From positions 1,235,171 to 1,299,170 of the forward strand of contig CAVTDJ010000002.1 of the NCBI GenBank assembly GCA_963733575.1: 64,000 bases of DNA, in the 5' to 3' direction. How positions within the stretch are numbered: position 1 is the first letter of the stretch; each line of letters opens with the position of its first letter. The translations under genes were made by a program, and so were the position numbers. This document shows, piece by piece, positions 12,859 to 48,553 of the stretch. Origin of the DNA: an uncultured Alphaproteobacteria bacterium (GTDB lineage: Bacteria > Pseudomonadota > Alphaproteobacteria > Rhizobiales > Xanthobacteraceae). Under the pieces are notes generated by a model, which saw only the letters and a list, made by a program, of their open reading frames with translations, made no database searches and was not told the DNA's origin.

Positions 12859-12868
12859 GACGGTTATA

Positions 12869-29825: not shown

Positions 29826-29931
29826 TCGAACGGCTCATCAACGATTAACCGGAACCGTAGCGCGGCGATTTGCGTTGTGTGACGGTATCGTTACACTTCT
29901 ACGATCTTTCGGTAACGCGTGCGGGTGGGCG

Positions 29932-30846
29932 ATGCGGCTCGACTGGCTGACCTGGTCAAATCCGGTTGCGATCTGGTGGAGCTTTTTGATCCTGGTCAGC
30001 GCCGGCAACGTCACCTTGCTGCTTGGCTTGTACTCTCGCTTCCGCAAAACAAGCGTCGTGCGGCGCGGCGGTGCATTTGTGCTGGAGCCGCTCCTGCTCC
30101 TGAGCGCCGCCTATGTATTCGGCTGCGCCTTCCGCTCCGTCCTGCCGCGCGCCGATGTGCAGAGAATCTGCCTGTTCGACACGTGGCTCTCGAGCGTCTT
30201 CGTCGGGCGGTCTGTCGCCACGATCGCCGAAGTTTGCTTCGTCATTCAATGGGCCATTGTTTTGCGCGCCCTCGCAAATGTTGCGAACGCGGACACGGCG
30301 CGAAATATCTCGAAGACCTTCGTTCCATTGATCGTACTGGCGGAAGGCTGCTCCTGGTATGCCGTGATCACGACGAATTATTTGGGCAATATGCTGGAAA
30401 ACTCGCTGTGGACGGCGACTTTCCTGCTCATCGCGATCGCGCTGTTGGATCTCGTGAACAGATTCCGCGGCGTCGTGCAGTTGGCAATCGCGGCGGCCGC
30501 CGCCGGCATTGCCGGCTATGTGGTGTTCATGTGCACCGCCGATGTGCCGATGTATTTTGTCCGCTGGCAGTCCGAAATCGCGAGTGGAAAGAATTTTTTC
30601 GGATTGTTTTCCGGCCTTCATGACGTCGCCACGCGCTGGGTCGTCACCCGCGACATTGAGCGCTGGGACGGCGAAATCGCCTGGATGTCGCTCTATTTCA
30701 GCATGGCGGTGTGGGCGAGCCTTTTGCTCGCGAGCTTCGGCCTGGTGAAACACCTGCTACCGCGGTACCGCGCCAGCCGGCCCGCACCAAAGCCCGCACG
30801 CGGACCGCTCGCGGTCGCAGTGCGCTCTTCTCGACGCATTCCATGA
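29932..30846 (+). CDS. Hypothetical polytopic membrane protein
   Basis: 304 aa with about 7-8 hydrophobic segments. No family was recognised. The start is taken at ATG 29932. Confidence 0.5.
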   Translation: MRLDWLTWSNPVAIWWSFLILVSAGNVTLLLGLYSRFRKTSVVRRGGAFVLEPLLLLSAAYVFGCAFRSVLPRADVQRICLFDTWLSSVFVGRSVATIAEVCFVIQWAIVLRALANVANADTARNISKTFVPLIVLAEGCSWYAVITTNYLGNMLENSLWTATFLLIAIALLDLVNRFRGVVQLAIAAAAAGIAGYVVFMCTADVPMYFVRWQSEIASGKNFFGLFSGLHDVATRWVVTRDIERWDGEIAWMSLYFSMAVWASLLLASFGLVKHLLPRYRASRPAPKPARGPLAVAVRSSRRIP

Positions 30847-31835: not shown

Positions 31836-32668
31836 GATTGCGCTTGGCGGTCGCTGCCGCATCGGCGAGCGCCTCGTCCCCCGTCTGACTCGGACTGGTC
31901 AAGCCAATGACCGCCATGGGGTCATCATTCGCGTCGTTTCGAACGAGTCATACGCGAGTCGGCTCTAGTCCGACGAGCAAACATTAGCCATATCGCTGGT
32001 AACCACGCTTCCCGCGACATCGATCTGAACTTGCAGCCCCGCTATGCCGGCTCTCGCTCCAGAGGCGGTCGTGCGGCCACGGAGAGCACTCGCATTCCCC
32101 ACCCTCATTTTCGACGTCTCGAGTGCGGTCTAATCACTTCCATGTCCGCCCAAAGCCGATATCAGCAGACGCTGGGAACCCGGTTATCTTTTGTCGGCAG
32201 GTTCGAACATCCCCGATAGGAAGCACGTTCTCGCGTCTTCAAACACCATTTGTTCAAATTCGGCTATTTTGTGCGGCGTTCGTTTAACTGTTCCCGCAGA
32301 TTAACGCCTTTGGCAATCGCTTGATCTGTGGCGCTGGGCTCGACGCATTCGTGTTAGCGGGCGCCGCGGGCGCGCGTGATTGCAACTCGAACAAGTGAAA
32401 CATCGAATCTCACGGGACCGCCGAATCCGCGAGCTCCTGACGAGCGCCGCTCGTGCCAGTGCTTGCTACGCTCTGCTACTCCCGTCAATTGACCCGAGCC
32501 GAACAAGCTCCGTATTTTTCGGATGCAGAACGTGGGATTTTCAACGTTATCTTCATCGCTCCGCAACGATTTAAGCACAGACTTTATTATGGGTTGTTCG
32601 CCCCGCGGGCCGCCCGCTTGTCCAGTAGCAAATCATGGCCACGTACACGCTGCCCCAAAGGGGCCGGG

Positions 32669-33385
32669 ATGAGACCCTTGTCATCCAGCCATCACCGGGA
32701 AGGCAACGGGAGCCCAGCGACGCCGGATGCGGTCGTCCATGTGGTTGATGATGATGAGAGCATACGGGATTTGTTGCAGCTCCTGCTCAAGACAGTTGGT
32801 TTGAAAGCCGTAACTTATTCATCGTCTTCCGTGTTCATTGAAAAGTTCGATCCCGCTCGACCGAGCTGCGTCATTCTTGACCTGCGGATGCCGGAATCGA
32901 ACGGTTTCGAGACGCTGACTTGGATGCGAACGCGTGCAAGATTGGTTCCCGTGATCTTTGTCTCTGGCTACGGCGATCTGGCGACCGTGGTCCGCGCCAT
33001 GAAACTGGGAGCGGTCGAATTCTTCGAAAAGCCGTTCAACAAGGAACTGCTGATCGAGGCAATTCAGCATTGGGTTCGCAGCGACATCGCGGCCCATCGA
33101 ATGTGGTGCCAGCACAAGGTCACGTTGGATCGGCTCGCAACGTTGTCGCGCCGGGAGAGACAGGTTCTCGATTGCGTACTCGACGGTATGTCGAACAAGG
33201 AGACGGCGCGCCATCTGAGCGTCAGCCCGAAGGCGATTGAAATCTACCGCGGGCACCTCATGCAGAAGATGGAGGCGGGCAACGTCGTCGGGTTGGTTAT
33301 GAGAATTGCCGGCTGCTTGAAGTGCGGTGGTCAGCCGGCGATTCGGCTCCCGTGCCTTGATCGGATGCGGCTGGACGACTTGTAG
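32669..33385 (+). CDS. FixJ/NarL-type response regulator (REC + LuxR-type HTH), orphan
   Basis: REC motifs are VHVVDDDESIRD, VILDLRMPESNG, VIFVSGYGD and FFEKPF. The HTH reads LSRRERQVLDCVLDGMSNKETARHLSVSPKAIEIYRGHLMQKM. No histidine kinase is adjacent. Confidence 0.85.
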   Translation: MRPLSSSHHREGNGSPATPDAVVHVVDDDESIRDLLQLLLKTVGLKAVTYSSSSVFIEKFDPARPSCVILDLRMPESNGFETLTWMRTRARLVPVIFVSGYGDLATVVRAMKLGAVEFFEKPFNKELLIEAIQHWVRSDIAAHRMWCQHKVTLDRLATLSRRERQVLDCVLDGMSNKETARHLSVSPKAIEIYRGHLMQKMEAGNVVGLVMRIAGCLKCGGQPAIRLPCLDRMRLDDL

Positions 33386-33664
33386 TTGGAACTGACGACA
33401 GCCGTTTTCAGCTATTGCGGCACGAAATTGCGGTGAACACTGGATCCAGGCAACGCGGCCTTGCTGACGCGTTCCGCCTTGTTGTCACCGAACCTTCGGC
33501 AATCACATTCGATCGTTCGCGCAAGGACGAGCGCAGATGACGCTTCTCGTGCTCTTACTTACCTAGCATGGCGCTGCCGTTGTTTAGGGTAAACCCCCCA
33601 CGGCGCAGGTATTCGACCCACTTATGTCGCGCATGCGCGTGTGCTCTGGTGCCGTCATTGAACG

Positions 33665-33704: not shown

Positions 33705-33914
33705 ATGGCGGTAGAAAAAACCATTGCGTCGACGAGCCTCGCCGAGGTTGTCGACCGCATTCTCGATAAGGGCGTCGTCATCGACGCATGGGCTCGCGTC
33801 TCTCTGGTCGGGATCGAGCTGCTTGCGATCGAGGCCCGCATCGTGGTCGCCAGCGTCGATACTTATCTGAAGTACGCTGAGGCCATCGGTCTCACCGCGG
33901 CTGCCGAGGCCTAA
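33705..33914 (+). CDS. gvpA: Gas vesicle structural protein GvpA
   Basis: 69 aa: [63 protein letters not shown]. This is close to the canonical GvpA core. An AAGGAG SD precedes it. Confidence 0.97.
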
Positions 33915-34067
33915 CCTGTTTGGGCTGCGACAATGAAACGAAACGGGGCTGAAACGGCATTCGTGATCCGTCAAGGAACATCGCCGTTTCGGTCCCGAAA
34001 GTTTCCCACGTTACGTCGATGTTCGCTCGCACAGGCGACGCGAGCTCTGCAGCGAAAGGGCGCTACA

Positions 34068-34619
34068 ATGTCACAAACCCGAGAAATTAGCCGACTGACC
34101 AAAGATCTTGTTCAGGCATCAAAGCTGCGCAAGGCGGCTACCGATGCCATGCGTCTGGCCACGAAGTCGATGTTGACGACATGCGCAACGGTGCGGGGAG
34201 AACTCGGGCGCGAATATGCCGCGCACACACACAAGTTTCTTGCTTCCCTAAGCAAGGATGTAGCGGCTTATCGTCGTGCCATGGCCCACCAGATCGCAAA
34301 GACGAAGAAGAATGTCGCAGCCGATCGTCAGGCGACGATGAGCCAAATGACACGGTGGACGGGTGCGCGGTCGAAGGCGAGCAACCTGCTGCACCGCGAT
34401 CTCGAACGCCAAGCGGCCTCCATCATGACCAAAACCGCACAACTGCGTTCGGAATTTGCGAACGCACACCAAAACATGGCCAAGCAGCAGGAAGCAGCGC
34501 TCAAGGCAGGGCACCGTAAACTGCACGCCGGCATGGCCAGAGTCATCAATGCGACGCATGCGGACCGCATGAAGGCGCACGGAATCTGGGCGAACTTCAG
34601 GCTTAGCGGGGCTGCCTAG
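34068..34619 (+). CDS. Basic, predicted all-helical protein in the gvpC position (function unknown)
   Basis: 183 aa, rich in A/K/R/T/H (…KDLVQASKLRKAATDAMRLATKSMLTT…AYRRAMAHQIAKTKKNVAADRQ…). I could not see any 33-aa GvpC-type repeat. The call rests on position only. Confidence 0.45.
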   Translation: MSQTREISRLTKDLVQASKLRKAATDAMRLATKSMLTTCATVRGELGREYAAHTHKFLASLSKDVAAYRRAMAHQIAKTKKNVAADRQATMSQMTRWTGARSKASNLLHRDLERQAASIMTKTAQLRSEFANAHQNMAKQQEAALKAGHRKLHAGMARVINATHADRMKAHGIWANFRLSGAA

Positions 34620-34733
34620 CCGAGAGAAGTCTGAGCGGGCTCGAAGTCCGATCGCGCCAGACAGGAATCGAAACCGTCCGCGTTGCACGCCGCGCCTGAA
34701 GCACGCGGAAACAGAAATGCGCCCGGGTCGTCT

Positions 34734-34769
34734 GCTAGATGCGCCGCTAGATGACGCGCTAGACGAGGT
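34734..34769 (+). promoter_or_regulatory. Three phased 12-bp direct repeats (GCTAGA core) upstream of the next gene
   Basis: GCTAGATGCGCC, GCTAGATGACGC and GCTAGACGAGGT lie back-to-back and end 32 nt before ATG 34802. They sit in the 167-182 bp gap inside the gvp cluster. Confidence 0.35.
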
Positions 34770-34801
34770 GCGACGCCGGATCGAAAGTGGACGCAAGAAC
34801 G

Positions 34802-35548
34802 ATGTATATGAGCACGAGCAAGATCAGATCCGCAGGGAGGACGAGCGGCAGCATAGAGATCACATTGCCGCCCGCGTTGCAGGCCTTCGCCGGGCTGGGC
34901 TGCCGCGTGGTGGTGCGCGACGGACTGCAGCCGGAGATCGTCCTGCAGCCTGATTTTTCCGATGTTTGGTCATTGCTTGGGGCATTGTGGGGGAAGCTAT
35001 CGCTCGCGCTGGGCTCGGCCGAATCGATCGGAGAGTTTGCTCCGGGCGTTTTTATGCTGACCCTGCTGCCGCCGCGACATTCGCAGCGAGGGCTGCCGCT
35101 CGCTTACTCTGATCTCGTCACCTTGGGAAAAAGCGGCGAGAACCCTACCAAGGGTGGCTTGGAAGCGCTGGCTCGAGTTCTATCCGTATTAGCCGCGGCT
35201 ATCGCGCGTGAACTCGGACTTGAGCAGAAATTTGCCTTGGGTTTTGGCGATGCAGTGGCCTATGTGGTCACGGAAATATCAGTCGGCTTCGGCACCGATT
35301 TCGAACGAAGCATGGCGGCCAGCCTCTCCCGACAAGCGCATTTCAGACCGCGACTGCTGTTCTCGGTGTTCGACGACGAGTTTTGGCTGGAGTGCGAGCC
35401 CGCGTTGAGGCGGATCCACGGACAGTTTCGCTCGTGGCAGAGCAAACCGGAACGTTACGAAGCGGCGCAGCAACTCTGGTATCGCGCTCTTCAGTGCGAG
35501 AGTGTTCCCGGATGCGCTGACCAGCATGCCGCAGCCCAAGAGTATTGA
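34802..35548 (+). CDS. Hypothetical protein with an AbrB/MazE (SpoVT-AbrB)-like N-terminus
   Basis: The N-terminus KIRSAGRTSGSIEITLPPALQAFAGLGCRVVVRDGLQPEIVLQP follows the swapped-hairpin pattern (G-S-x-x-I/V-x-I/L-P-x-x-L...L-x-L...V...G-x-I-x-x-P). The remaining ~200 aa are unrecognised. Start candidates are GTG 34787, ATG 34802 and ATG 34808. Confidence 0.5.
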   Translation: MYMSTSKIRSAGRTSGSIEITLPPALQAFAGLGCRVVVRDGLQPEIVLQPDFSDVWSLLGALWGKLSLALGSAESIGEFAPGVFMLTLLPPRHSQRGLPLAYSDLVTLGKSGENPTKGGLEALARVLSVLAAAIARELGLEQKFALGFGDAVAYVVTEISVGFGTDFERSMAASLSRQAHFRPRLLFSVFDDEFWLECEPALRRIHGQFRSWQSKPERYEAAQQLWYRALQCESVPGCADQHAAAQEY

Positions 35549-36603
35549 TGCACGGAGATACAGACATGTCGACAGCGTCGCGTTCAGTCAGTCAGCTTGC
35601 TGGAAGCACAATTTCCCTTCGTCCAAGCACTAATTTCGTGGAGACAGCCGCGGTCCAGGATTTGAGAAATCGGGCGCTTGGCTACCTGAGCGCGGGATAT
35701 CCGGTTCATTTCCGCGGTCCCGCCGGTTCCGGCAAGACAACGCTGGCGTTTCATGTGGCTGCCCAGTTGGGACGGCCGGTGGTGTTTCTCACTGGTGACG
35801 ACGAGATGACGACCTCCAACCTGGTCGGCGGCCAGTTCGGGTATCAGTACCGCAAAGTCGTCGACCGTTTCATCCATACTGTTTTGAAATACGAGGAGGA
35901 CGCCACCCGCAAATGGTCCGACCATCGTCTGACGACGGCGTGCCGGGAAGGCCACACGCTCATTTACGACGAATTCACGCGCTCGCGGCCTGAGGCAAAT
36001 AACATTCTCCTCGGAGTGCTGGAGGAGCGGTTGCTGGTTCTGCCGGTTCCCAATCAAAACGAGAGCTACGTCAGGGTTCACCCCGACTTCCGCGCCATTT
36101 TCACCAGCAACCCGCAGGAATATTCCGGCGTTCACGATGCCCAGGATGCGTTGAGCGACCGAATGGTCATGATCGATGTCGATTACCTGGACCGCGAGAC
36201 GGAGTTGGCAATCACCGCCGCGCGTTCCGGCCTCGCGGAATCCAAGGTGGAGCGTATCGTCGACCTGGTGCGCGACTATCGGGCATCGGGCGAATACGAC
36301 CAAGCGCCGACATTGCGGGGCAGCATCATGATCGCGAGGGTCGTTGCCGATCAAGACCTGCAAGTTTCGTCCGCCGATTCCCGCTTCGTCCAGGCCTGCC
36401 TTGATCTGCTCGGCGCGAGGTCCCCATTCAAAAGTCGATCGAACGATGAACGGGTGCAGCAGCGCAAGATGTTGATAAGCCTGGTGCAGCATCACTGTCC
36501 GGCCGATCAGAGCCAAGATGAGATTGCTGATAAGCGACAGAAGAGAAAATCGGAGCCGGCCCGAGCGCGTCTCGGCCAAATGGCCGTGGAGACGCGTCGA
36601 TGA
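35548..36603 (+). CDS. gvpN: Gas vesicle protein GvpN (MoxR/CbbQ-like AAA+ ATPase)
   Basis: YPVHFRGPAGSGKTTLAFHVAAQLGRPVVFLTGDDEMTTSNLVG is Walker A and LIYDEFTRSRPEANNILL is Walker B. The start overlaps the upstream stop (TGATG). An alternative ATG lies at 35566. Confidence 0.9.
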   Translation: MHGDTDMSTASRSVSQLAGSTISLRPSTNFVETAAVQDLRNRALGYLSAGYPVHFRGPAGSGKTTLAFHVAAQLGRPVVFLTGDDEMTTSNLVGGQFGYQYRKVVDRFIHTVLKYEEDATRKWSDHRLTTACREGHTLIYDEFTRSRPEANNILLGVLEERLLVLPVPNQNESYVRVHPDFRAIFTSNPQEYSGVHDAQDALSDRMVMIDVDYLDRETELAITAARSGLAESKVERIVDLVRDYRASGEYDQAPTLRGSIMIARVVADQDLQVSSADSRFVQACLDLLGARSPFKSRSNDERVQQRKMLISLVQHHCPADQSQDEIADKRQKRKSEPARARLGQMAVETRR

Positions 36604-36947
36604 TGCATATCAGGGGGCTTCACGAAGCCTGCGGGCTTCGCAGTCTTCGCATCGCAGGCTCCACCGCCGACCGCAGCAAGCTCGCGGCCACGCTTTCGCG
36701 TCTTGAGCACCAGCGAGCGTTGCTCGCACGCCAACTTGCGGTGTGGACCAAGAAGCAGCAGGTGACCCAACTTCGCCTCGGCGTGCTCGACAAGGAGATC
36801 ACGCGGATCGGGCGGCTGATCCGCAAAATCGGTGGGCCGCACTATGCCGTCAATCAGCGCGACGGGACGCGTTCGATCAAGTTTGAGGAGCAGCCGGACA
36901 GCCGTGTAGCAGCAGTGCAGCGCGGCGACGTTAGTATCGATTACTGA
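36600..36947 (+). CDS. Small coiled-coil protein following gvpN (possibly GvpV-like; uncertain)
   Basis: 115 aa with an ATGA overlap with the gvpN stop. It has a heptad-like segment LSRLEHQRALLARQLAVWTKKQQVTQLRLGVLDKEITRIGRLIRK. The GvpV idea rests only on position after gvpN. Confidence 0.45.
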   Translation: MMHIRGLHEACGLRSLRIAGSTADRSKLAATLSRLEHQRALLARQLAVWTKKQQVTQLRLGVLDKEITRIGRLIRKIGGPHYAVNQRDGTRSIKFEEQPDSRVAAVQRGDVSIDY

Positions 36948-36991
36948 ATGCGGCGGTCTGCCGCAGCAACGGCCAACATTGGAGTTCTGTC

Positions 36992-37531
36992 ATGTCAAGT
37001 CACAAGGGTGCCACACGCAAGAAAGCCGGACACGCCGAAGCCGAACCGGTGGTCGATATCGGTTTCGGTTCCTTGTTCAAGGGGCTCGGAGACTTTGTCG
37101 GCGTCCTCGGCAAGCTTGTGGAGGCCGGCGAGCAGCATATCGAGCGGACTGGAGAGTTCAAAGTCAAAGGCCTCGGCGACAAGGGGCGCGGCGTCTATGG
37201 CGTGAGCGTGCGGGTCGGGCTCGGCGGCGAGCCGCACGTCGAACGCTTCGGCAACATCCGCACCACCAAAGAAGGCCCGGAGGTCGTCGATGTACGCGAA
37301 CCGCTGATCGACGTCTTCGACGAAGGCAGCGAAATCGTGATCGCCGCCGAGCTCCCTGGCGCCAAGGAAGATGCGATCGAGATCGAGGTCCGTGGCGACG
37401 TTCTTGCGCTCAGCTCGTCGGGCGAGCGGCGCTACGCCAAGGAGGTCTTGCTGCCGAGCCCGGTCGATGCCGCATCGCTGCGGCGGTCCTTCAAGAACGG
37501 TCTTTTGGAATTGCGACTGAAGAAGGCCTAG
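36992..37531 (+). CDS. Hsp20/alpha-crystallin-domain protein, GvpH-like
   Basis: The C-terminal alpha-crystallin domain reads IDVFDEGSEIVIAAELPGAKEDAIEIEVRGDVLAL...LLPSPVDAASLRRSFKNGLLELRLKK. The N-terminal part has a Gly-rich GVYGVSVRVGLGG segment. A GGAG SD precedes it. Confidence 0.75.
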   Translation: MSSHKGATRKKAGHAEAEPVVDIGFGSLFKGLGDFVGVLGKLVEAGEQHIERTGEFKVKGLGDKGRGVYGVSVRVGLGGEPHVERFGNIRTTKEGPEVVDVREPLIDVFDEGSEIVIAAELPGAKEDAIEIEVRGDVLALSSSGERRYAKEVLLPSPVDAASLRRSFKNGLLELRLKKA

Positions 37532-37533
37532 TC

Positions 37534-38625
37534 ATGTCGAATGCGATCGAGCACTTCTCGCGCACCCGCGTGGAGAACACGACGCTGCAAGTGATTGCGG
37601 ATACGCAGCGCAATCTCGATTGCCTGATCCGAGAAGAAGAGTCGGTGATCCGGCACTATAGCCGCCTGGGCACATGGCCGCACAGCTCGGTCAACATGTT
37701 CGTGGTTGAAAACCTGCAGCCGCTCGTTGCGCAAATCAAAAGTGCGGCATTGTTGTCCTCGGTCGTCGCCGACGACATCGACCGCCGGCCGATGGTCAAC
37801 ATCTACGATGCAGCCGATCTGGCGGAATGCACAGTCTTCGTGAACCGGCATGCCCTCGAGAAGGAAGGCATCTGGAATGATGCAATTTCCTTGCGCGCCT
37901 TGCTGGCGCATGAGCACGGCCATCCTTTGGCCGAGAACGAGACGGTGCGCGCCGCTCGCGAGCTCTCGGTCGAAGTCACGGCTGAGAGCCGGACGTCGAC
38001 TACGGAAATCGTCGGAGTTCTCCATCTCCTGGCCGATCGTCTGTGCGTTCATTCGCCGCAGGAAGTGTTCGCAAACGAGATCGTGGTTCGCGCTGGCTTC
38101 GATGACGCCTTGTTTCACCTCGACATGGGTGTCGTGGAGAAAGCCCGCTTGGGCGTCGCCAAGCGGACTTCCCTGGTGCAAGGCCTCGAAAAGCGGGCCA
38201 AGGACGGCAAGCTGACCGCTGTCCAGGTGGCCGGGCTTCTGCTGGTCGGGGATCTGCAGGCGTATTTGGGATTTGCGCTTGAGACCGCGCCATTCCTGCG
38301 CGCCGACCACCGACAGCAAGCGCAAGCGCTCGAGGCCGCCCTGATCGAAGGCGTGCTGTGCCATCTCGATCCGGCGGCGCCGCTACTCTACGAAAAATTC
38401 CGCGACCATTATCTGCGACTGAGAACCGATTTTACTCCCGCCGAGATGAAGGTCTGGAGTAGCGAGGCGCTGGGCCTTCTTGCCGACGCAATCCAGCAAA
38501 GACACTTGCCGCTTCGTTTCTCATTGGTTCGGACGCATTCCGCGGCCAAACCGCGGCGCCAGTCGCGAATGGCGCCTACTTCCATCGTCCACAGTGCCAT
38601 CGGGCATGATGGTGGCTCGCCATGA
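37534..38625 (+). CDS. Hypothetical protein with an HExxH zinc-metalloprotease-type motif
   Basis: 363 aa. LRALLAHEHGHPLAENE places HEHGH at nt 37909-37923. It starts 2 nt after the Hsp20 stop and its stop overlaps the gvpF start (ATGA). The first 185 codons of the 36979 ORF in the track are an out-of-frame shadow over hsp20. Confidence 0.6.
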   Translation: MSNAIEHFSRTRVENTTLQVIADTQRNLDCLIREEESVIRHYSRLGTWPHSSVNMFVVENLQPLVAQIKSAALLSSVVADDIDRRPMVNIYDAADLAECTVFVNRHALEKEGIWNDAISLRALLAHEHGHPLAENETVRAARELSVEVTAESRTSTTEIVGVLHLLADRLCVHSPQEVFANEIVVRAGFDDALFHLDMGVVEKARLGVAKRTSLVQGLEKRAKDGKLTAVQVAGLLLVGDLQAYLGFALETAPFLRADHRQQAQALEAALIEGVLCHLDPAAPLLYEKFRDHYLRLRTDFTPAEMKVWSSEALGLLADAIQQRHLPLRFSLVRTHSAAKPRRQSRMAPTSIVHSAIGHDGGSP

Positions 38626-39419
38626 AACTCGCGCCCGCACGCTCGCCGAAGGTTCACACGGAGCGTGAGCTCCCTCAGTACCTTTACTGCATCGTGCGGT
38701 GTCACGAGCCGCGGACCTTCGAGACACTCGGAATGGGCGAGCGGGGCGACGTGGTCCACACAATAAATTTCGACGATCTGGCGGTGGTCACGAGCGATTC
38801 TCCTGAGGCGCGATACGACAACACGCGGCGAAACATGATGGCCCATATGCGGGTCCTGGACGAAGTCATGGCGGACCATACCGTGCTGCCGATCCGTTTC
38901 GACAGCGTGGCGCCCGGGCCCGACGCAGTGCGCGACCAATTGCTGAAGGCGCGCTATCGGGAGCTGAACTCGTTGCTTGACGGAATGGAGGGCCGGATCG
39001 AACTCGGACTCAAGGCGTTCTGGTACGAGGACGTCGTCTTCAAGGAGATCGTTCAGCAAAACCCGACGATCCGCCGCATGCGCGAAAGCTTGGCGGGCCA
39101 TTCTCTCGAAGAGACCTACTATGACCGGATTCGCCTCGGCGAACTTGTCGAGGCTGAGCTGAAGGCCCGGCGCGTCCAGGACGCCGAAAGCGTCCTCGAA
39201 CGGTTGCGACCGCTCGCGGAGAAGACCCAGGTCAACGCTACGATTGCGGACCACATGGTGGCGAACGCCGCGTTCCTGATCTCGCGGACGCGCGAGGCGG
39301 AATTCGATTCCAACGTGCGCAAGCTTGATACGGAAATGGGGCGCCGCCTTCTCATTAAATGCGTTGGCCCCGTCGCCCCCTACAACTTCGTGAACGTCAC
39401 GATGCAGTGGGCGAGATGA
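38622..39419 (+). CDS. gvpF: Gas vesicle protein GvpF/GvpL family (paralogue 1)
   Basis: YLYCIVRCHEP...INFDDLAVVTSD...HMRVLDEVMADHTVLPIRFDSV...CVGPVAPYNF shows the N-terminal and C-terminal hallmarks of GvpF/L. Confidence 0.85.
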   Translation: MKLAPARSPKVHTERELPQYLYCIVRCHEPRTFETLGMGERGDVVHTINFDDLAVVTSDSPEARYDNTRRNMMAHMRVLDEVMADHTVLPIRFDSVAPGPDAVRDQLLKARYRELNSLLDGMEGRIELGLKAFWYEDVVFKEIVQQNPTIRRMRESLAGHSLEETYYDRIRLGELVEAELKARRVQDAESVLERLRPLAEKTQVNATIADHMVANAAFLISRTREAEFDSNVRKLDTEMGRRLLIKCVGPVAPYNFVNVTMQWAR

Positions 39420-39468
39420 CGGACACACCCCAGCCGGGTGGTAACAGAAATGAGTTGTGAGGTGGACA

Positions 39469-39717
39469 ATGGGATTACTTAGCTCAATCGTGACGGTGCC
39501 GGTGGCCGGTCCGATAAGGGGCATGTTGTGGATCGTCCAGACGATCGCGGAGCACGCCGAACGAGAACTCTACGACGAAGACAACATTCGCAAGGATCTT
39601 CTCAAGCTTGAGCACCAGTATGAGCTCGGCAAAATGACGCTCGAGGAATTCGAGAGCGCCGAAAGCGAACTGCTGCAGCGGCTGAATCAAGCCCGAAGGT
39701 TGAAGGAAGGACGTTAG
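39469..39717 (+). CDS. gvpG: Gas vesicle protein GvpG
   Basis: MGLLSSIVTVPVAGPIRGMLWIVQTIAEHAERELYDEDNIRKDLLKLEHQYELGKMTLEEFESAESELLQRL is the canonical GvpG pattern. A GAGG lies 6 nt upstream of ATG 39469. Confidence 0.85.
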   Translation: MGLLSSIVTVPVAGPIRGMLWIVQTIAEHAERELYDEDNIRKDLLKLEHQYELGKMTLEEFESAESELLQRLNQARRLKEGR

Positions 39718-39720
39718 ATC

Positions 39721-40125
39721 ATGGCACAGCGCCTCCCGCGATTTCCAGAATCGCACGAACGGCATCTGAAGGAAAGTGAATCGATCGTTCCCGAAGCGAC
39801 GGCTGATATCGCTCCCGATGGAGCTATCGCCGAAAATCCGCCGATCGGGCGCCGCAAAGGTGAGGCAACCGGGGCGGCGGCGGTCGCCAAGTATGCGAAG
39901 GCGGAATTGGAAAGCATCACCGGCCTCGATGCCGATCATGTTTCCGCGGTGTTGCGCGAACCGGATGGCTGGCACGTCACGGTCGATCTGGTCGAACTCA
40001 GGCGCATACCCGCGGCGACGGACATGATCGCGTCCTACGAGGCCGTGCTCGGACCCACGGGCGAGCTGTTGAGCTATCGTCGCCACCGGCGCTATTTCCG
40101 CGACCAGACGGTGGAAGAGTCATGA
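39721..40125 (+). CDS. gvpO: Gas vesicle protein GvpO
   Basis: AKYAKAELESITGLDADHVSAVLREPDGWHVTVDLVELRRIPAATDMIASYEAVLGPTGELLSYRRHRRYFR matches the GvpO C-terminal domain pattern. Confidence 0.8.
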   Translation: MAQRLPRFPESHERHLKESESIVPEATADIAPDGAIAENPPIGRRKGEATGAAAVAKYAKAELESITGLDADHVSAVLREPDGWHVTVDLVELRRIPAATDMIASYEAVLGPTGELLSYRRHRRYFRDQTVEES

Positions 40126-40406
40126 CCGGCGCCAGCTCGCGATCCGAAATCCAGTGTCCGATCGATCTGTTCAAGCCGCAAGAGGCCAAGATCGAGGCGC
40201 TGACTAAGGCCATTAACGCAGCGGGGACAGCGTCGGAGAAGGCGCCAAATGCAAGCAGGCTCATTGAAGAGGTGAACGTCTTGTTGGGTTGCGCGAGCTT
40301 CGATCGGGCGAATCCGAACTGCGGCCTCTGCAGGAGCTTCTCCGAGCTTCGCATGAAGACTGCGACTCTGATCGTCAGGATTGGCACGCTGGGCACTGTA
40401 GATTAA
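40122..40406 (+). CDS. Small hypothetical protein with four cysteines (C-x44-C-x9-C-x2-C)
   Basis: 94 aa. It has an ATGA overlap with the gvpO stop and ends 15 nt before gvpJ, so it fills the gap exactly. It contains ...EIQCPIDL...LLGCASFDRANPNCGLCRSF.... No family was recognised. Confidence 0.5.
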   Translation: MTGASSRSEIQCPIDLFKPQEAKIEALTKAINAAGTASEKAPNASRLIEEVNVLLGCASFDRANPNCGLCRSFSELRMKTATLIVRIGTLGTVD

Positions 40407-40421
40407 CCGGCCGATCGACAC

Positions 40422-44111
<3,690 letters not shown>

Positions 44112-44115
<4 letters not shown>

Positions 44116-44985
44116 CTACCGGCAAAACCGAAGATGCGGCCGCCGATCAGAGTGTCGTGTACGTCTACGGCGTGGCGCGCGCTGCGCGTGGGCGCCAAAC
44201 TGCTCCGCCTCGGCTCGAAGGCATCGTTCCGGCAGCGCCGGTTAACCAACTGGTGCATGCGAATTTGATAGCCTTCGTGAGCGTGGTCCCCGCCGCTCAG
44301 TTCGGTCCGAGCGAATTTCGTTTGGCGCTGAATGACGCGGCATGGCTGAAGGATCGGATTTTGGCACATGAGAAGGTTCTGGAAGAACTGCGGTCCAGCT
44401 ACGATGTCGTGCCTTTCAGATTCGGCACGATCTATCTGAATACCTCGCAGGCGTCGAACGCCCTTGCGCGCCACCGGCGTGAGCTTTGCCAAACGCTTGA
44501 TCGGGTTCGAGATGCCTCCGAGTGGGGCGTAAAGCTGCATTGCGATCAAGACACGCTGCGTCGCGCGATCGAAACCGAACTCGGATTCCATTCGCCAGCT
44601 ACGCGACATGCTCGGGCACGCCTCGCCGGGGGCTCGGTTCTTTCTGCAGAAGAAGTATGCCAAGGCGCTCGATGGCGAGGCTATTGCGGCGATCGCAAGC
44701 GCGATGGAGCGAATTCGGCGAAGCCTCGATAGCTGCGCCTGCGAGTCCACGGAGATCGAGGTCCAGCCGACGGCGGTGCATGGCAGGTCCAAGGACATGG
44801 TGATGAACGCAGCCTACCTCGTGGCTGCGGGATCTCTGGGGCCATTCCGGCAGATGTTCGCGGCGCTGCAGGAAGAATTTGCCGCTCGCGGGTTCGACCA
44901 TGAGCTGACTGGTCCGTGGCCGCCGTATCACTTTGTGTCGGTTCGGCAGGAAGGCATCGCGGATGCAGCCACGTCTAATCAATAG
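44112..44985 (+). pseudogene. GvpL/GvpF-family gene (paralogue 3) interrupted by a single frameshift (or sequence error)
   Basis: The N-terminal part is in the frame of 44112 (VVYVYGVARA...ILAHEKVLEELRSSYDVVPFRFGT...LRRAIETE). The continuation is in the +1 frame (SDSIRQLRDMLGHASPGARFFLQKKYAKAL...LTGPWPPYHF, stop at 44985). The junction is near 44575-44585. The 874-nt span is not a multiple of 3. Confidence 0.75.
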
Positions 44986-45187
44986 AGACCAGCTTGCCTT
45001 GTCCGAACTCCTGGATCGCGCCCTCAACAAAGGCGTCGTTCTGTGGGGTGATGCCACGATCTCGGTCGCCGGCGTGGATCTGATCTATGTCGGGCTCAAG
45101 GTTCTGCTCGCCTCGGTCGATACCGCGGAACGGCTGAAACACGACGCTCGCGCGACGGCGCAGGTGGGCACGGGAGCCGCTGAATGA
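44963..45187 (+). CDS. Small GvpA/J-family protein, GvpS-like
   Basis: 74 aa. LALSELLDRALNKGVVLWGDATISVAGVDLIYVGLKVLLASVDTAERL resembles the GvpS/M type of the GvpA family. It overlaps the upstream gene end by 23 nt and its stop overlaps the next start (ATGA). Confidence 0.8.
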   Translation: MQPRLINRDQLALSELLDRALNKGVVLWGDATISVAGVDLIYVGLKVLLASVDTAERLKHDARATAQVGTGAAE

Positions 45188-45972
45188 TCTGCGTATATGC
45201 GATTACCGATCGGCCGGAAGAGCCTTTGCCGATCCAGTTGGGCCAGCAGGACGAACCGCTGGCCAAGGTTGTGTGGCGCGATGTTGTCGCTGTTGTCAGC
45301 ACGTTCAACGGTTCACAGCTATCGAAGACCGGAGACGAGCTGTGGCGGCACGAAGAGGTGGTAGAGGCGTTTATGAGCGATCGGGCGGTGGTTCCGGTGC
45401 GATTCGGAACTCTGCTGCCGTCGCCGCAGCGCGTGAGCGACTTGTTGTGCCGGGCCTATGGTGCGCTCGTACAGGACATCGAGCGCGTGCGCGGTCAGGT
45501 CGAGATCGGCATGAGGTTCTTGACCGCAATTGAGCACGGCCCGGCGGAAGCAACGGCGGCCGTGCGTCCTCGTGAATCGGCGGCGTTGGACTGCCACGGC
45601 GGCGATCGTCCGGCCGCCTCGGCCAACAGTTTCACCCCGTCCCGAACCGGGCCGGGCTCCGCGTATCTGTGGGCGAGGCTTGTCAGGGAGCGGGAGCTTC
45701 GAGATCGGCAGCGCGCCAGGCTGACGCTGGTTCGGGAAGCTTATGAACTGCTCGCAAGTCACGCAAATGCAAGCAGGCTGGACGACGAACCGGATGATCG
45801 GCGTGGGATCTCGGCGGCGTTTCTTGTGCCACGCGACCACATTGCATGCTTTCGCCAAATCGTTGGCGAAGTGGCGAACGCCCATCCGGAACTTGCGCTG
45901 CTCTGCACTGGACCCTGGCCTCCCTACTCTTTTGTAAGTGCTGGCGAGCGAGCGCGCGACAAATCGGAGTGA
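45184..45972 (+). CDS. GvpL/GvpF-family protein (paralogue 4)
   Basis: MICVYAITDRP...WRHEEVVEAFMSDRAVVPVRFGTLL...GSAYLWARL...CTGPWPPYSF shows the GvpF/L hallmarks. Confidence 0.82.
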   Translation: MICVYAITDRPEEPLPIQLGQQDEPLAKVVWRDVVAVVSTFNGSQLSKTGDELWRHEEVVEAFMSDRAVVPVRFGTLLPSPQRVSDLLCRAYGALVQDIERVRGQVEIGMRFLTAIEHGPAEATAAVRPRESAALDCHGGDRPAASANSFTPSRTGPGSAYLWARLVRERELRDRQRARLTLVREAYELLASHANASRLDDEPDDRRGISAAFLVPRDHIACFRQIVGEVANAHPELALLCTGPWPPYSFVSAGERARDKSE

Positions 45973-45980
45973 AACGTGCC

Positions 45981-46367
45981 ATGCGGGATGACGCAGCATA
46001 TGTCCGTAGGCAAAAGGTCATTCATGCACCGGATGATCAGGCCCTGCTCGACAGGTTTGCCGGCCCGCTCGCTGATGATCGACGAGAGTCGCCGGCGCGC
46101 ATCGTCGCCGACCCTAAGAGCGTCGAGCGCGACCTGGCACGTCTTGTGCTCAGTGTTATCGAGCTGCTGCGCAAGCTGCTTGAGCGACAGGCTGTGCGAC
46201 GCGTGGAGAATGGCACTCTGAGCGAAGAGGAGATTGAGCGCTTAGGTGAAACCCTGCTCAAGCTCGAAGCCCGTATGGGCGAACTCAAGGCGGCGTTCGG
46301 TCTGGGAGACCAGGAATTGACTCTGGATTTGGGCCCGCTTCGCGATCTGGTTTCGGAGTGCGAGTAG
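45981..46367 (+). CDS. gvpK: Gas vesicle protein GvpK
   Basis: LARLVLSVIELLRKLLERQAVRRVENGTLSEEEIERLGETLLKLEARMGELKAAFGL is the canonical GvpK core. The start is taken at ATG 45981. Confidence 0.88.
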   Translation: MRDDAAYVRRQKVIHAPDDQALLDRFAGPLADDRRESPARIVADPKSVERDLARLVLSVIELLRKLLERQAVRRVENGTLSEEEIERLGETLLKLEARMGELKAAFGLGDQELTLDLGPLRDLVSECE

Positions 46368-46834: not shown

Positions 46835-48553
46835 ATGCGTATGGCCAGAGCCAGAACGTCTCTTGCTCAGTCTGCTCACACTTTTCGCCACTGTGGCGAC
46901 GATAGTCACGTCGGCTTCGGCGCAGCAACAGAAACCCAACATCCTCTTCATCATGGGCGATGATATCGGCTGGATGCAGCCGGGCATCTACCATCGCGGC
47001 CTAATGGTCGGCGAAACACCCAACATCGACCGCATCGGGAACGAGGGCGCGATCTTCATGGACTATGTCGCCATGCAGAGCTGCACATCCGGGCGTAATG
47101 CTTTCTTCACCGGCATGTATCCGCTGCGCACCGGAATGATCCCGCCGCAACTACCCGGCAGCCCATCCTATTTGCAGCCCGGAACTCCGGCGCTGGCCAA
47201 GTTTCTGTTCGATCTCGGCTACACCACTGGCGAGTTCGGCAAGAACCACTTGGGTGACCACACTGCGGCGCTGCCGACGGCGCACGGTTTCCAGGAATAC
47301 TGGGGCTATCTCTATCACCTGGATGCGATGCAGCAAGTAAGCTTCCCCGACATCAACAGTTCGCCGATAGCGCAGGGGGTGCGCCACCGTGCAAGAACAC
47401 GCCAGTCCCCGGCCTTTCGGACCCTCCCGGCGCGGTGGACCAGAAAACCACGCTGTGCCTGATGCCGCCGCGCCCGGTCATCGCGTGCAAGTCCTCGGAC
47501 GGCACGGAGAAGAACCAGACTTGCAAGGACGAGGGCCCGCTGACGCTGGAGCGGTCGAAAACCGTAGACGAAGAGATATCGGCCAAGGTCGTCGACTTCC
47601 TCGACCGCAACGATCCTAAGAAGACCAACAAGCCCTTCTTCGTTTGGTACAACCCGGCGCGCATGCACGTCGTGACCGTGTTGTCGCCGAAGTACGAGGC
47701 CATGCTGGGCGAGCGGGGCGGCAAGGACTGGGGTGTCAACGAGGCCGGCATGAAGCAGATGGACGACAATATCGGCACCGTCCTCAAGAAACTGGAAGAC
47801 ATGGGGCAGCTTGAAAACACCATCGTCGTCTTCACCACCGACAACGGTGCCGAGGCGATCAGCTTCCCGGACGGCGGCGTCACGCCGTTCAAAGGCCAGA
47901 AGGGAGAGGCTTGGGAAGGCGGCTACCGCGCCCCGATGGTCGTTCGTTGGCCGGGCCATATCAAGCCGGGCACGGTCAAGAACCAGTTGTTCGCCGCCCT
48001 CGACTGGCTACCGACGTTCGTCGACATCGCTGGTGGACCGAAAGGCGAAGGGCTAAAGCAGCAGATCGAGAACGGCCAGTATCCCGGCATCGTCAAAACC
48101 ACGCTCGATGGCTTCGACCAGCGCGGTTATCTCGAAGGCACGTTGGAAAAGTCGGCGCGCGACTTTTTCTTCTATTATTCGGGATCGACGCCCTCGGCGG
48201 TGCGCTACAAAAACTGGAAGATGTATTACACGATGTCACAGCCTGGGCCGGCTGGCTGGATCATGCCACTTATCCCGTTCCACTTTACCTTGGTCCAGAA
48301 TATCAAACGCGATCCGTTCGAGCAGTCTGTCGGCATCGACCAGAAGTCGGCGATGAGCTTGGGCGGTGCGCTCGGCGCCCCGATGACCGCGTTTCAGTAC
48401 GACTGGAACATGCTGCCGATCGGTCAGCAGCTTTGGGAGGGGCACCTGCTGTCGTACGAAAAGTACCCGCCGCTGCAGGCTCCCGAAACTTACAACCTCA
48501 GTGGCATCTTAGAGCAAGTCAAGAAAGCTGCCGCTAATCACGCGAGCGACTAG
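46835..48553 (+). pseudogene. Arylsulfatase gene disrupted by frameshift(s)
   Basis: The N-terminal sulfatase part is in frame 0 (46863..47462: KPNILFIMGDDIGW...SCTSGRNAFFTG...GKNHLGD). The rest is in frame 2 (from ~47372 to the stop at 48553: ...VVFTTDNGAE...GGYRAPMVVRWPG...). A G5 run at 47375-47379 lies in the switch zone. The only ATG with a good SD (GGAGG, ATG 46835: MRMARARTS...) is again in frame 2, which suggests a second shift near 46860. Confidence 0.7.

Follow-up and report, generated by a model that had tools for sequence, protein, structure and literature searches.

A predicted gas vesicle operon of an uncultured alphaproteobacterium with a conserved chaperone/unfoldase module

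Introduction

The p-vac and c-vac clusters of Halobacterium salinarum are organized in two divergent operons, gvpACNO and gvpDEFGHIJKLM, and the gvp cluster of this organism is not known to carry a Cdc48, J-domain, or HExxH protein. The cluster of Serratia sp. ATCC 39006 (gvpA1-gvrC) has 19 genes and that of Bacillus megaterium (gvpA-U) has 14, both with multiple GvpA-like and GvpF/L paralogues and with lineage-specific accessory genes. Castillo and Saier 2010 (PMC2963123) described gvp clusters that contain ArsA-type ATPases and an Hsp20, a precedent for extra ATPases and chaperones in such clusters; Cdc48-type ATPases, J-domain fusions, and HExxH proteins go unmentioned there. The marine bacterium Octadecabacter arcticus, which carries a single-strand cluster, is visibly gas-vacuolate (Vollmers et al. 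2013, PMC3646047).

Here we describe a gvp cluster in a 64,000-nucleotide stretch of DNA (the window) from an uncultured soil or peat alphaproteobacterium of the Xanthobacteraceae/Hyphomicrobiaceae group (Hyphomicrobiales). The exact window proteins are absent from databases, and the cluster is known here from sequence.

Results

On its gene content, the region from 33705 to 46367 on the plus strand is a genuine single-strand gas vesicle operon of 18 genes (Table 1). It encodes GvpA, GvpN, GvpF, GvpG, GvpO, GvpK, two small GvpA-like proteins (J and S/M type), and four GvpF/L proteins in total. In Pfam and NCBIfam profile searches, all core Gvp families scored above the curated cut-offs, and these matches bear out the gene content read from translations in the original prediction (gvpA, gvpN, gvpF, gvpG, gvpO, gvpJ, a gvpS-like gene, gvpK, and three more GvpF/L genes, all on the plus strand). 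All eight families essential in Halobacterium (A, F, G, J, K, L, M-like, and O) are represented on one strand, as is GvpN.

Table 1. Features of the gvp cluster and its upstream region
Feature	Position	Strand	Evidence or remark
FixJ/LuxR-type response regulator (receiver and GerE HTH)	32453-33385	+	PF00072 91.9 bits; PF00196 60.4 bits
Conserved non-coding block upstream of gvpA	33587-33650	+	invariant element GGGnAnACCC
gvpA, major shell protein, 69 aa	33705-33914	+	PF00741 59.8 bits; NF006874 130.9 bits (cut-off 100)
Stem-loop about 30 nt past gvpA stop	33944-33997	+	15-bp stem; no T tract
orf183	34068-34619	+	longest ORF 33933-34619 (228 aa), start trimmed to 34068
orf248, conserved accessory protein upstream of gvpN	34802-35548	+	
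gvpN, AAA+ (MoxR-like) ATPase	35548-36603	+	TIGR02640 373.2 bits (cut-off 266.8)
orf115	36600-36947	+	ATGA overlap with upstream gene; no family match
Hsp20/alpha-crystallin small heat-shock protein	36992-37531	+	PF00011 23.2 bits (cut-off 20.8)
orf363, HExxH protein	37534-38625	+	starts 2 nt past hsp20 stop; overlaps gvpF by ATGA
gvpF, 265 aa	38622-39419	+	PF06386 236.2 bits
gvpG	39457-39717	+	PF05120 83.3 bits
gvpO	39721-40125	+	PF05800 81 bits
orf94, small four-cysteine protein	40122-40406	+	overlaps gvpO by ATGA; no family match
GvpJ-like minor shell-family protein, 116 aa	40422-40772	+	PF00741 62.5 bits
Cdc48/VAT-family double-ring AAA+ ATPase, 727 aa	40850-43033	+	TIGR01243 905.4 bits (cut-off 802.65)
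GvpF/L paralogue 2 with C-terminal J-domain	43030-44115	+	PF06386 181.6 bits; PF00226 33.5 bits (cut-off 27.8)
GvpF/L paralogue 3, split	44112-44985	+	frames 44112-44732 and 44608-44985
Small GvpA-like protein (GvpS/M type), 74 aa	44963-45187	+	PF00741 55.2 bits
GvpF/L paralogue 4, 262 aa	45184-45972	+	PF06386 146.6 bits
gvpK	45981-46367	+	PF05121 109.3 bits

The gvpA gene is preceded by a strong Shine-Dalgarno sequence (GAAGGAG), and its product is identical to GvpA of two relatives (L001 and L011). The Walker A motif of GvpN is GPAGSGKT, and the gvpN start overlaps the preceding stop (TGATG). The best NCBIfam match of the GvpJ-like protein is halo GvpJ. The 94-aa ORF at 40122-40406 matches none of the Gvp families, and it is the ORF at 40422-40772 that encodes the GvpJ-like protein. 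The start of gvpG is either GTG 39457 or ATG 39469, and that of gvpK is ATG 45981, 8 nt past the upstream stop, with GTG 45969 as an alternative that would give a GTGA overlap.

Two further genes lie between gvpA and gvpN. The orf183 product is basic and Ala-rich and sits where GvpC sits elsewhere. It gave no Pfam or NCBIfam match and has no internal repeats (best off-diagonal score 32, shuffle mean 32.7), and it is conserved at 35-85% identity in alphaproteobacterial relatives only. No GvpC was detectable among the window ORFs with Pfam and NCBIfam profiles or by the repeat scan of orf183. For orf248, neither a family match nor a PDB fold or sequence match was found (AF2 pLDDT 75); every one of its 336 homologues is annotated "hypothetical," and its counterparts in Octadecabacter and the distant cluster L016 share 33% and 42% identity, respectively.

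The gene order is common to 14 genome loci, in which GvpF is 77-94% identical. In the gas vesicle cluster of Octadecabacter arcticus 238 / O. antarcticus 307 (plasmid pOA238_160; PMC3646047), counterparts of 13 of the 18 window genes, 25-81% identical, follow one another in the same order on a single strand: gvpA, orf248, gvpN, hsp20, gvpF, gvpG, gvpO, gvpJ-like, GvpF/L with J-domain, GvpF/L, small GvpA-like, GvpF/L, and gvpK. Identity was 81% for GvpA, 76% for the small GvpA-like protein at 44963-45187, 68% for the GvpJ-like protein, and 49% for GvpF. In contrast to the window, the cluster of these marine Rhodobacterales is plasmid-borne and IS-flanked, has no adjacent FixJ-type regulator, and lacks the Cdc48 ATPase, the HExxH protein, orf94, orf115, and orf183.

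Halobacterium shares families A, N, O, F, G, J, K, L, and M-like with the window, but its cluster has GvpC, the GvpD/E regulators, and GvpI. The Serratia and B. megaterium clusters have another gene order and are not known to carry Cdc48 or a J-domain fusion. The family matches of the window ORFs included none of the Serratia proteins GvpC, GvpV, GvpW, GvpX, GvpY, GvpZ, and GvrA-C and none of the B. megaterium proteins GvpP, GvpQ, GvpR, GvpT, and GvpU. The expectation that gene order and accessory content differ from four textbook clusters held for the accessory genes, but the order is not novel, since it matches Octadecabacter.

The junctions listed in the original prediction were exact (TGATG at 35546; ATGA at 36600, 38622, 40122, 43030, 44112, and 45184), as was the 23-nt overlap, which runs from ATG 44963 to the last base of the preceding stop codon (TAG 44983-44985). 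By a crude whole-window gene call, 8 to 9 of the 17 junctions inside the cluster overlap, compared with one genuine overlap in 23 same-strand junctions outside it (Fisher p about 0.002); the raw outside count was 4 negative junctions in 26, of which 3 were set aside as long-ORF or frameshift artefacts. Ten relatives, with proteins mostly 40-95% identical, share the overlaps, and most of them keep the 23-nt one; RefSeq annotates overlaps at 5 of the 11 same-strand junctions in Octadecabacter. The coupling is enriched relative to the rest of the window, but, because it is shared by all examined relatives and is similar in Octadecabacter, it is typical of the cluster family and not, as had been proposed, unusual.

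The cluster had also been called complete, which is too strong because one of the four GvpF/L genes is split by a single inserted C. The PF06386 profile of paralogue 3 is divided between the two frames (positions 2-144 and 149-244), and the lesion is a +1 frameshift caused by one extra C at 44580 (GAA-C-TCG), missing from all six relatives in a DNA-level alignment of seven sequences including the window. Paralogue 3 is a single ORF of 279-292 aa in 8 of 9 translated relatives; in the remaining one, L002, it stops at 139 aa. Either the assembly is in error at this base or the lesion arose very recently. As the operon is tightly coupled, a real frameshift could be polar on gvpS, the last GvpF/L gene, and gvpK.

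It is rather unlikely that the cluster is a decaying, nonfunctional remnant in which a real frameshift lowers the coupled downstream genes and no vesicles are made. The insertion is unique to the window and lies outside a long homopolymer, the setting most typical of long-read errors, and a second split gene, an arylsulfatase, is found 2 kb downstream. GvpF and GvpL are both essential in Halobacterium, according to Offner et al. 2000 as cited in PMC3646047. However, none of the 17 other genes is truncated, all of them align with L001 over their whole length, and gvpS has its own Shine-Dalgarno-like sequence. The split gene itself shows no sign of decay, with 76-77% identity to L011 compared with 78-80% for the flanking GvpF/L genes. 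Related MAGs carry single frameshifts in different genes (gvpN in L002, cdc48 in L005 and L014, and gvpF in L014), a pattern expected from assembly errors.

The backbone of this operon holds an inserted, conserved module of Hsp20, the 363-aa HExxH protein, the Cdc48 ATPase, the J-domain GvpF/L, and the 94- and 115-aa proteins. By family assignment this is a chaperone/unfoldase module, and it is the new part of the cluster, the core being ordinary; no paper describing it was found in a literature search. The original prediction had counted about seven noncanonical genes inside the cluster; Cdc48, the HExxH protein, orf94, orf115, and orf183 match no Gvp family. Beyond the window, the module is found in MAGs from several families of Hyphomicrobiales, in MAGs of Chloroflexi, and on dozens of metagenome contigs, and it is at equivalent positions in the distant clusters L016/L017, L018 (Beijerinckiaceae), and L019/L020. 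ArsA occurs together with Cdc48 in two distant relatives, L016 and L036, whereas the window has no ArsA.

The Hsp20 had been described as GvpH-like. Its assignment to Hsp20 stands, but its similarity to GvpH, a family of the Halobacterium cluster, is marginal (Pfam GvpH 18.3 bits, cut-off 22), and NF041800 was also below the cut-off (134.9 bits; 140). The hsp20 frame is 80-97% identical in relatives, and the overlapping alternative frame is 47-60% identical in the more distant L002, L004, L006, and L010. A 548-aa ORF at 36979 was rejected as a gene, as it joins this alternative frame to the real 363-aa gene starting at 37534.

The orf363 product keeps AHEHxHPLxE and E177 down to 29% identity. 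Its family is tiny (133 proteins among 5.8e9, or 118 among 1.84e9 representatives), and sequence searches of the same two sets found no link to any other family. In every locus examined, its only context was between Hsp20 and gvpF in a gvp cluster. The AF2 model (pLDDT 87.7) gave only weak fold matches, mostly to zinc peptidases (E>=0.05, TM about 0.3), and with the motif these suggest a putative zincin-type metallopeptidase.

The Cdc48 protein has CDC48_N, CDC48_2, and two AAA domains with lids, with both Walker A and B motifs, arginine fingers, and the aromatic pore loops KLYG and MWIG intact. Its architecture of an N domain followed by D1 and D2 AAA rings is that of archaeal Cdc48/VAT (TIGR01243), from which it differs in being bacterial and operon-embedded and, on inspection of the C terminus, in lacking the HbYX motif for 20S proteasome docking. 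In 28 of 34 assessable metagenome loci, the gene immediately preceding the J-domain GvpF/L gene is cdc48, and the HExxH protein is present in 14 of the 16 Cdc48-positive loci with enough upstream sequence. The HPD motif of the J-domain, at residue 287, is invariant in eight counterparts, Octadecabacter included. The cysteines of orf94 (CP...C...NCxLC) are invariant in 12 sequences; the protein is 57% identical in L016 and is found in many Cdc48-bearing metagenome loci. The orf115 product, probably a helical protein judging from its sequence, is kept in 14 of 14 relatives with the core motif LxRLxHQRxLLxRQLAVWT and a conserved C-terminal DVSxEY.

Cdc48, the HExxH protein, orf94, orf115, and orf183 could be unrelated passengers without a gas vesicle role, given that none matches a Gvp family, that all five are absent from the Octadecabacter cluster, and that Cdc48-family ATPases serve general roles elsewhere. 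This is highly improbable. The genes hold fixed positions across clusters that span at least two phyla and have only 30-65% identity between shared proteins, three of the genes overlap bona fide gvp genes by conserved 4-nt start/stop junctions, and the HExxH family was found in gvp clusters only, in every locus examined.

Of the genes flanking the cluster, only that of the FixJ/LuxR-type regulator is co-conserved with it (14 of 14 relatives and L018), and this regulator is a candidate for governing the operon. Its start lies within 32453-32669, and its best NCBIfam match is FixJ (193.6 bits), below the cut-off of 255. In nine upstream regions, invariant columns cluster in 33587-33650, the remaining intergenic region being unalignable, which makes this block a candidate operator or promoter. 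A sigma-70 consensus scan upstream of gvpA found nothing, and no promoter or terminator consensus was above chance. The stem-loop past gvpA has an MFE z-score of -3.35 (0 of 200 shuffles fold as well) and is kept in relatives, with compensatory changes in 8 of 15 predicted pairs (11 pairs in this stem). It is a candidate mRNA-stabilising or attenuating element.

Discussion

A functional cluster might serve a role other than flotation in a soil or peat organism, for example in stress response or gas storage. By record titles (SPRUCE, MFD isolate names), the relatives were obtained in MAG projects on peat and soil, and the chaperone-rich content (Hsp20, J-domain, and Cdc48) looks like a stress module. 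In Streptomyces and other soil bacteria, vesicles from gvp clusters are hard to observe, and actinomycete gvp clusters reportedly lack a clear buoyancy phenotype (van Keulen et al. 2005, cited in PMC2963123). We nevertheless regard a nonflotation role as distinctly improbable, as the closest cultured backbone counterpart, Octadecabacter, is visibly gas-vacuolate (PMC3646047) with a highly similar GvpA, and waterlogged peat or sediment is a plausible habitat for buoyancy in water films or columns.

Taken jointly, the observations are very probably explained by a gas vesicle operon with an Octadecabacter-like backbone, an inserted proteostasis module, coupled translation, and a recent or artefactual frameshift. 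Transcription would start from the conserved block upstream of gvpA, probably under the FixJ/LuxR-type regulator. The hairpin after gvpA may help to hold GvpA in excess over the accessory proteins, whose translation would be coupled by the 1-, 4-, and 23-nt stop/start overlaps, fixing their ratios.

Since Octadecabacter forms its vesicles with neither Cdc48 nor the HExxH protein, the module is not a universal requirement. Where it is present, family knowledge and gene linkage suggest that it may be a proteostasis set devoted to the shell proteins, which are very hydrophobic and prone to aggregation. In this scheme the shell proteins would be held by Hsp20, and the J-domain would draw DnaK from the cell to the GvpF/L assembly platform. 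Shell protein that has misassembled or collapsed would be unfolded or extracted by Cdc48, and the HExxH protein may then degrade it.

Gene content and backbone of the cluster

The core of the cluster is a new member of an already-known kind, and a conserved module inserted in it, consisting of a Cdc48-family ATPase, the HExxH protein orf363, Hsp20, orf94 and a J-domain-fused GvpF/L, appears to be undescribed. Open reading frames in window positions 31 to 49 kb were listed and translated and then scanned against Pfam and NCBIfam, which gave a co-directional run of 18 genes from position 33705 to 46367. The number in an orf name is the protein length in amino acids.

Genes of the gas vesicle cluster in the window
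No.	Gene	Position	Strand	Remark
1	gvpA	33705-33914	+	
2	orf183	34068-34619	+	183 aa, no family assignment
3	orf248	34802-35548	+	248 aa, no family assignment
4	gvpN	35548-36603	+	
5	orf115	36600-36947	+	115 aa, no family assignment
6	hsp20	36992-37531	+	Hsp20
7	orf363	37534-38625	+	363 aa, HExxH protein
8	gvpF	38622-39419	+	
9	gvpG	39457-39717	+	
10	gvpO	39721-40125	+	
11	orf94	40122-40406	+	94 aa, four-cysteine protein
12	gvpJ-like	40422-40772	+	
13	cdc48	40850-43033	+	Cdc48-family ATPase
14	gvpF/L-J	43030-44115	+	GvpF/L with J-domain
15	gvpF/L-3	44112-44985	+	GvpF/L, split
16	gvpS	44963-45187	+	small GvpA-like
17	gvpF/L-4	45184-45972	+	GvpF/L
18	gvpK	45981-46367	+	

All core Gvp families scored above their curated cut-offs, which bears out the gvp gene content on one strand that the original prediction had read from the translations. 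GvpA, the builder of the ribbed shell, scored 59.8 bits with PF00741 (cut-off, 25) and 130.9 bits with NF006874 (cut-off, 100). The AAA+ protein GvpN, which is required for vesicle enlargement, scored 373.2 bits with TIGR02640 (cut-off, 266.8). Also above the Pfam cut-offs were four PF06386 proteins, two PF00741 proteins besides GvpA, and PF05120, PF05800 and PF05121. GvpJ/M/S-type proteins are minor shell-related proteins, and GvpF/L proteins are interaction hubs and nucleators. The accessory families that are essential in Halobacterium (GvpF, GvpL, GvpG, GvpJ, GvpM-like, GvpK and GvpO) were present, one PF06386 gene being frameshifted. As judged from the sequence, the family set suffices for gas vesicle formation when Halobacterium is taken as the standard (A, F, G, J, K, L, M-like and O), with GvpN in addition. 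The 94-aa ORF, which had implicitly been read as a Gvp protein, does not belong to a Gvp family.

No cluster ORF matched GvpC in Pfam or NCBIfam; this outer strengthening repeat protein is not part of every gvp cluster. orf183 occupies the GvpC position, but it has no HMM match and no internal repeats, and its reading as GvpC is unsupported. A start at 33933, giving 228 aa, is disfavoured for this ORF, as it overlaps a conserved hairpin and distant relatives align from M46 onward only. The AF2 model of orf248 was of moderate quality (pLDDT 75), with neither a fold match nor a PDB sequence match.

A tblastn search of plasmids located a gvp cluster on pOA238_160 of Octadecabacter arcticus 238, a visibly gas-vacuolate sea-ice bacterium; Vollmers et al. 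(PMC3646047) described this cluster. It matches 13 of the 18 genes in identical order (25 to 81% identity). orf248, the gene upstream of gvpN, has a counterpart at 33% identity, and a 360-aa GvpF/L also bears a J-domain. In contrast, orf183, orf115, orf363, orf94 and the Cdc48 ATPase are missing from the Octadecabacter cluster. The gene order, which the original prediction took to differ from textbook clusters, is thus that of an Octadecabacter-type backbone.

Gene junctions and packing

The stop/start overlaps named in the original prediction were each confirmed to the base. Two further junctions are tight: hsp20 to orf363, with a 2-nt gap, and the last GvpF/L gene to gvpK, with an 8-nt gap that becomes a GTGA overlap should GTG 45969 be the start. 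When genes were called crudely from composition across the full window, 8 to 9 of the 17 cluster junctions overlapped. Outside the cluster 4 of 26 same-strand junctions were negative, and after three long-ORF or frameshift artefacts were set aside, 1 of 23 was a genuine overlap. The enrichment of overlaps in the cluster over the rest of the window gave a Fisher P of about 0.002.

Overlaps of 1 and 4 nt are the commonest classes in bacterial operons generally. Here, identical overlaps were found again in ten related loci, with protein identities of mostly 40 to 95%: -1 at orf248/gvpN; -4 at orf363/gvpF, gvpO/orf94, cdc48/gvpF/L-J and gvpF/L-J/gvpF/L-3; -23 at gvpF/L-3/gvpS; and -4 or -1 at gvpS/gvpF/L-4. 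This recurrence across sequences indicates genuine coupling that is maintained by selection. The Octadecabacter cluster, as annotated in RefSeq, has overlaps at 5 of its 11 same-strand junctions, indicating that coupling is a property of the cluster family and not of this genome. The packing is therefore tight relative to the rest of the window, but it is not as unusual as had been proposed, being shared by the ten related loci and Octadecabacter.

Related loci, flanks and noncoding elements

A scan of species-representative genomes yielded 14 syntenic loci, all in MAGs labelled Xanthobacteraceae, Hyphomicrobiaceae, Hyphomicrobium or Alphaproteobacteria, with GvpF identities of 77 to 94%. The isolate names of many of them belong to the SPRUCE (peat experiment) or MFD series. 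Most of the 14 loci have all 18 genes in unchanged order; orf94 is absent in three and the last GvpF/L gene in one. No relative, not even the closest, shares the outer flanks, and the sole co-conserved flanking gene is an upstream FixJ/LuxR-type response regulator. There was no compositional island signal (GC of 0.616 both within and outside the cluster), and neither an integrase nor a composition shift was seen near it. The Rfam scan of the window returned one tRNA and nothing else. A tRNA-Leu gene (anticodon TAA) lies at 49792-49877 on the minus strand, 3.4 kb downstream of gvpK.

No histidine kinase was identified next to the response regulator of the window. At L018, a locus in a Beijerinckiaceae MAG, a LuxR-type response regulator adjoins the cluster (1327-2872, minus strand), paired with a histidine kinase and divergently oriented. 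At 27980-30846 (plus strand) the window has three long ORFs with mutual overlaps of 100 to 260 nt, encoding a Tll0287-like protein, an enoyl-CoA hydratase with its domain beginning at residue 120, and a 427-aa product without a Pfam match; these are probably over-long starts rather than frameshifts.

Upstream of gvpA, a block at about 33587-33650 is conserved in nine loci, the rest of the intergenic region being unalignable. The element GGGnAnACCC is invariant in this block, and a strong Shine-Dalgarno sequence comes after it; the block is a candidate operator or promoter for the co-conserved response regulator. About 30 nt past the gvpA stop, a 15-bp stem-loop (33944-33997; z-score, -3.35) lacks a T tract. 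It is kept in relatives (of 15 predicted pairs, 11 of them in this stem, 8 show compensatory changes) and may favour the gvpA message over those of the accessory genes. No sigma-70 promoter or intrinsic terminator stood out from chance in consensus scans.

Cdc48-family ATPase and J-domain GvpF/L

The Cdc48-family ATPase scored 905.4 bits with TIGR01243 (cut-off, 802.65) and contains CDC48_N, CDC48_2 and two AAA domains with lids in Pfam. Its Walker A and B motifs (both copies), arginine fingers and aromatic pore loops (KLYG in D1 and MWIG in D2) are intact; a C-terminal HbYX motif is absent. Its best 120 database matches all come from MAGs or metagenomes, the named ones being from Xanthobacteraceae, Hyphomicrobium, Hyphomicrobiaceae, Devosia, Beijerinckiaceae and Chloroflexi. 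The J-domain on the neighbouring GvpF/L scored 33.5 bits with PF00226 (cut-off, 27.8), and its HPD tripeptide, at residue 287, is invariant in eight counterparts.

When metagenomes were scanned with a J-domain GvpF/L profile, at least 562 relatives came up, and 80 loci were kept. In 28 of the 34 loci having at least 2.3 kb of upstream sequence, a Cdc48 gene lies directly upstream of the J-domain GvpF/L gene. It lies elsewhere in the cluster at L093 and L096, and also at L083 and L100, which are both outside the 34. L082 resembles L083, with downstream sequence too short to judge Cdc48. The metagenome loci L043, L077 and L079 show no Cdc48 gene. L036, a distant version of the cluster, has a second Cdc48 copy on the opposite strand, at 945-3134. 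Another distant cluster, L016/L017, is probably of Chloroflexi; L016 additionally encodes a two-domain ArsA ATPase, a TPR protein and a zinc-finger protein of the DnaJ CXXCXGXG type (12589-13900 and 17255-19252), which reinforces the chaperone theme.

orf363 and Hsp20

Only 133 homologues of orf363 were found among 5.8 billion proteins, every one annotated as hypothetical. An exhaustive search with a profile against 1.84 billion representatives gave 118 matches and no bridge to a larger family, and no link to a peptidase family was found in this search, Pfam, NCBIfam or PDB sequences. The motif AHEHxHPLxE and E177 are kept down to 29% identity: H126 is invariant, E127 and H130 occur in at least 90% of the sequences, and E177 is invariant at 29 to 67% identity. 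The family thus conserves the zincin motif, HExxH with a downstream third zinc ligand. The AF2 model was confident (pLDDT 87.7). Foldseek returned nothing significant; the matches of non-negligible probability were nearly all zinc peptidases (E of at least 0.05, TM of about 0.3), among them M1 aminopeptidases, M9 collagenases and anthrax lethal factor. Since the motif is present and the fold matches are weak, orf363 is called a putative zincin (HExxH metallopeptidase).

The contexts of orf363 comprised the 14 genome loci, L016/L017 (39% identity), L018, and L019/L020, one of the most divergent members. In all of them orf363 sits between the gene in the Hsp20 position and gvpF, and every orf363-bearing cluster examined has a Cdc48-type ATPase directly upstream of the J-domain GvpF/L. 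Among the metagenome loci, orf363 was present in 14 of the 16 Cdc48-positive ones with enough upstream sequence and was never found without Cdc48.

Hsp20 scored 23.2 bits with the alpha-crystallin domain PF00011 (cut-off, 20.8) and 134.9 bits with NF041800, just under the cut-off of 140. With PF05455, the halobacterial GvpH family, it reached 18.3 bits, below the cut-off of 22, indicating that its description as GvpH-like reflects resemblance and not GvpH membership. The original prediction had also implied a single long ORF from 36979. This 548-aa ORF (36979-38625) was rejected as one gene because, in the more distant relatives, conservation of its first 185 residues falls far below that of the hsp20 frame, and these residues are separate from the 363-aa part; the region is hsp20, in another frame, followed by orf363, whose ATG at 37534 has a Shine-Dalgarno-like sequence. 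The alternative frame (36979-37533, plus strand) is open for 185 codons and runs into the orf363 frame. It is also open in the close relatives L001, L005 and L011 to L013. Being arginine-rich, the frame resembles an artefact of GC-rich sequence more than a gene overlapping hsp20.

Split GvpF/L gene

The third GvpF/L gene is read in two frames, which match Pfam profile positions 2-144 and 149-244. Translation from the equivalent start gave a single protein of 279 to 292 aa in eight of nine relatives; the ninth, L002, ends at 139 aa. In a DNA alignment with six relatives, the only frame-breaking difference is an extra C at window position 44580 (GAA-C-TCG). A programmed frameshift is excluded because the additional C occurs in none of the six aligned relatives and because, of the nine that were translated, eight stay in one frame. 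The split gene has diverged no more than its neighbours, indicating that the extra C is either an assembly error or a very recent change. Single frameshifts were also seen in related MFD MAGs, in gvpN at L002, cdc48 at L005 and L014, gvpF at L014, and orf363 at L009 and L014. Such scattered frameshifts are typical of assembly indel errors, and their presence in gvp genes of related long-read MAGs makes sequence error plausible here. All core families were found, but with one of the four GvpF/L genes frameshifted, the original description of the cluster as complete goes too far.

If the lesion is real, ribosomes would stop at 44732, 231 nt ahead of the gvpS start, and given the tight coupling, expression of gvpS, the last GvpF/L gene and gvpK could fall. 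Just 3' of the cluster, 2 kb downstream of the split GvpF/L gene, an arylsulfatase gene (46863-48553, plus strand) is also split into two overlapping frames, 46863-47462 and 47435-48553, matching positions 1-139 and 128-300 of the Pfam Sulfatase profile. This second apparent frameshift, less than 3 kb from the first, bears on the choice between indel errors and real pseudogenes.

Possible role of the module

Cdc48/VAT proteins thread and unfold proteins, Hsp20s hold unfolding clients, and HPD-bearing J-domains stimulate the Hsp70 ATPase. The module could combine a holdase, Hsp70 recruitment, an unfoldase and possibly a peptidase for aggregation-prone shell proteins, acting while vesicles assemble or once they have collapsed. 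Judged from its family and its operon linkage, Cdc48 may unfold Gvp proteins in an ATP-driven manner. Because Octadecabacter forms vesicles without Cdc48 or orf363, the module is auxiliary and not universally essential. We tentatively consider, while regarding it as rather doubtful, that the Cdc48-type unfoldase, the HExxH protein, Hsp20, orf94 and the J-domain GvpF/L form a dedicated shell-protein machine, which would pull out and unfold GvpA-family protein that is misassembled or collapsed, possibly degrading it as well, and would bring DnaK to the nucleation platform. If true, a protein-shelled organelle of this kind would for the first time be known to have a system for quality control or disassembly, and a bacterial Cdc48 would have a defined client to which it is linked genetically, perhaps together with a non-proteasomal peptidase of its own as partner.

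The nucleation and growth of gas vesicles, and the fate of misassembled or collapsed shell protein, are poorly understood, and heterologous gvp clusters used as acoustic reporter genes frequently fail or are toxic. No description of the module was found in the full-text literature, mostly of freely accessible papers, on gas vesicles with Cdc48, DnaJ or ArsA or in comparative surveys. The sole related mention found, from 2010, noted ArsA and Hsp20 in gvp clusters (PMC2963123).

At the gene level, gas vesicle capacity is widespread in uncultured Hyphomicrobiales from peat and soil MAG projects. Clusters of this type bring along an unfoldase, a J-domain as a tether to Hsp70, a small heat shock protein and possibly a peptidase. 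Conserved in at least two phyla and in dozens of environmental loci, this set offers concrete, testable assembly helpers and provides an obvious candidate client for a bacterial Cdc48 homologue.
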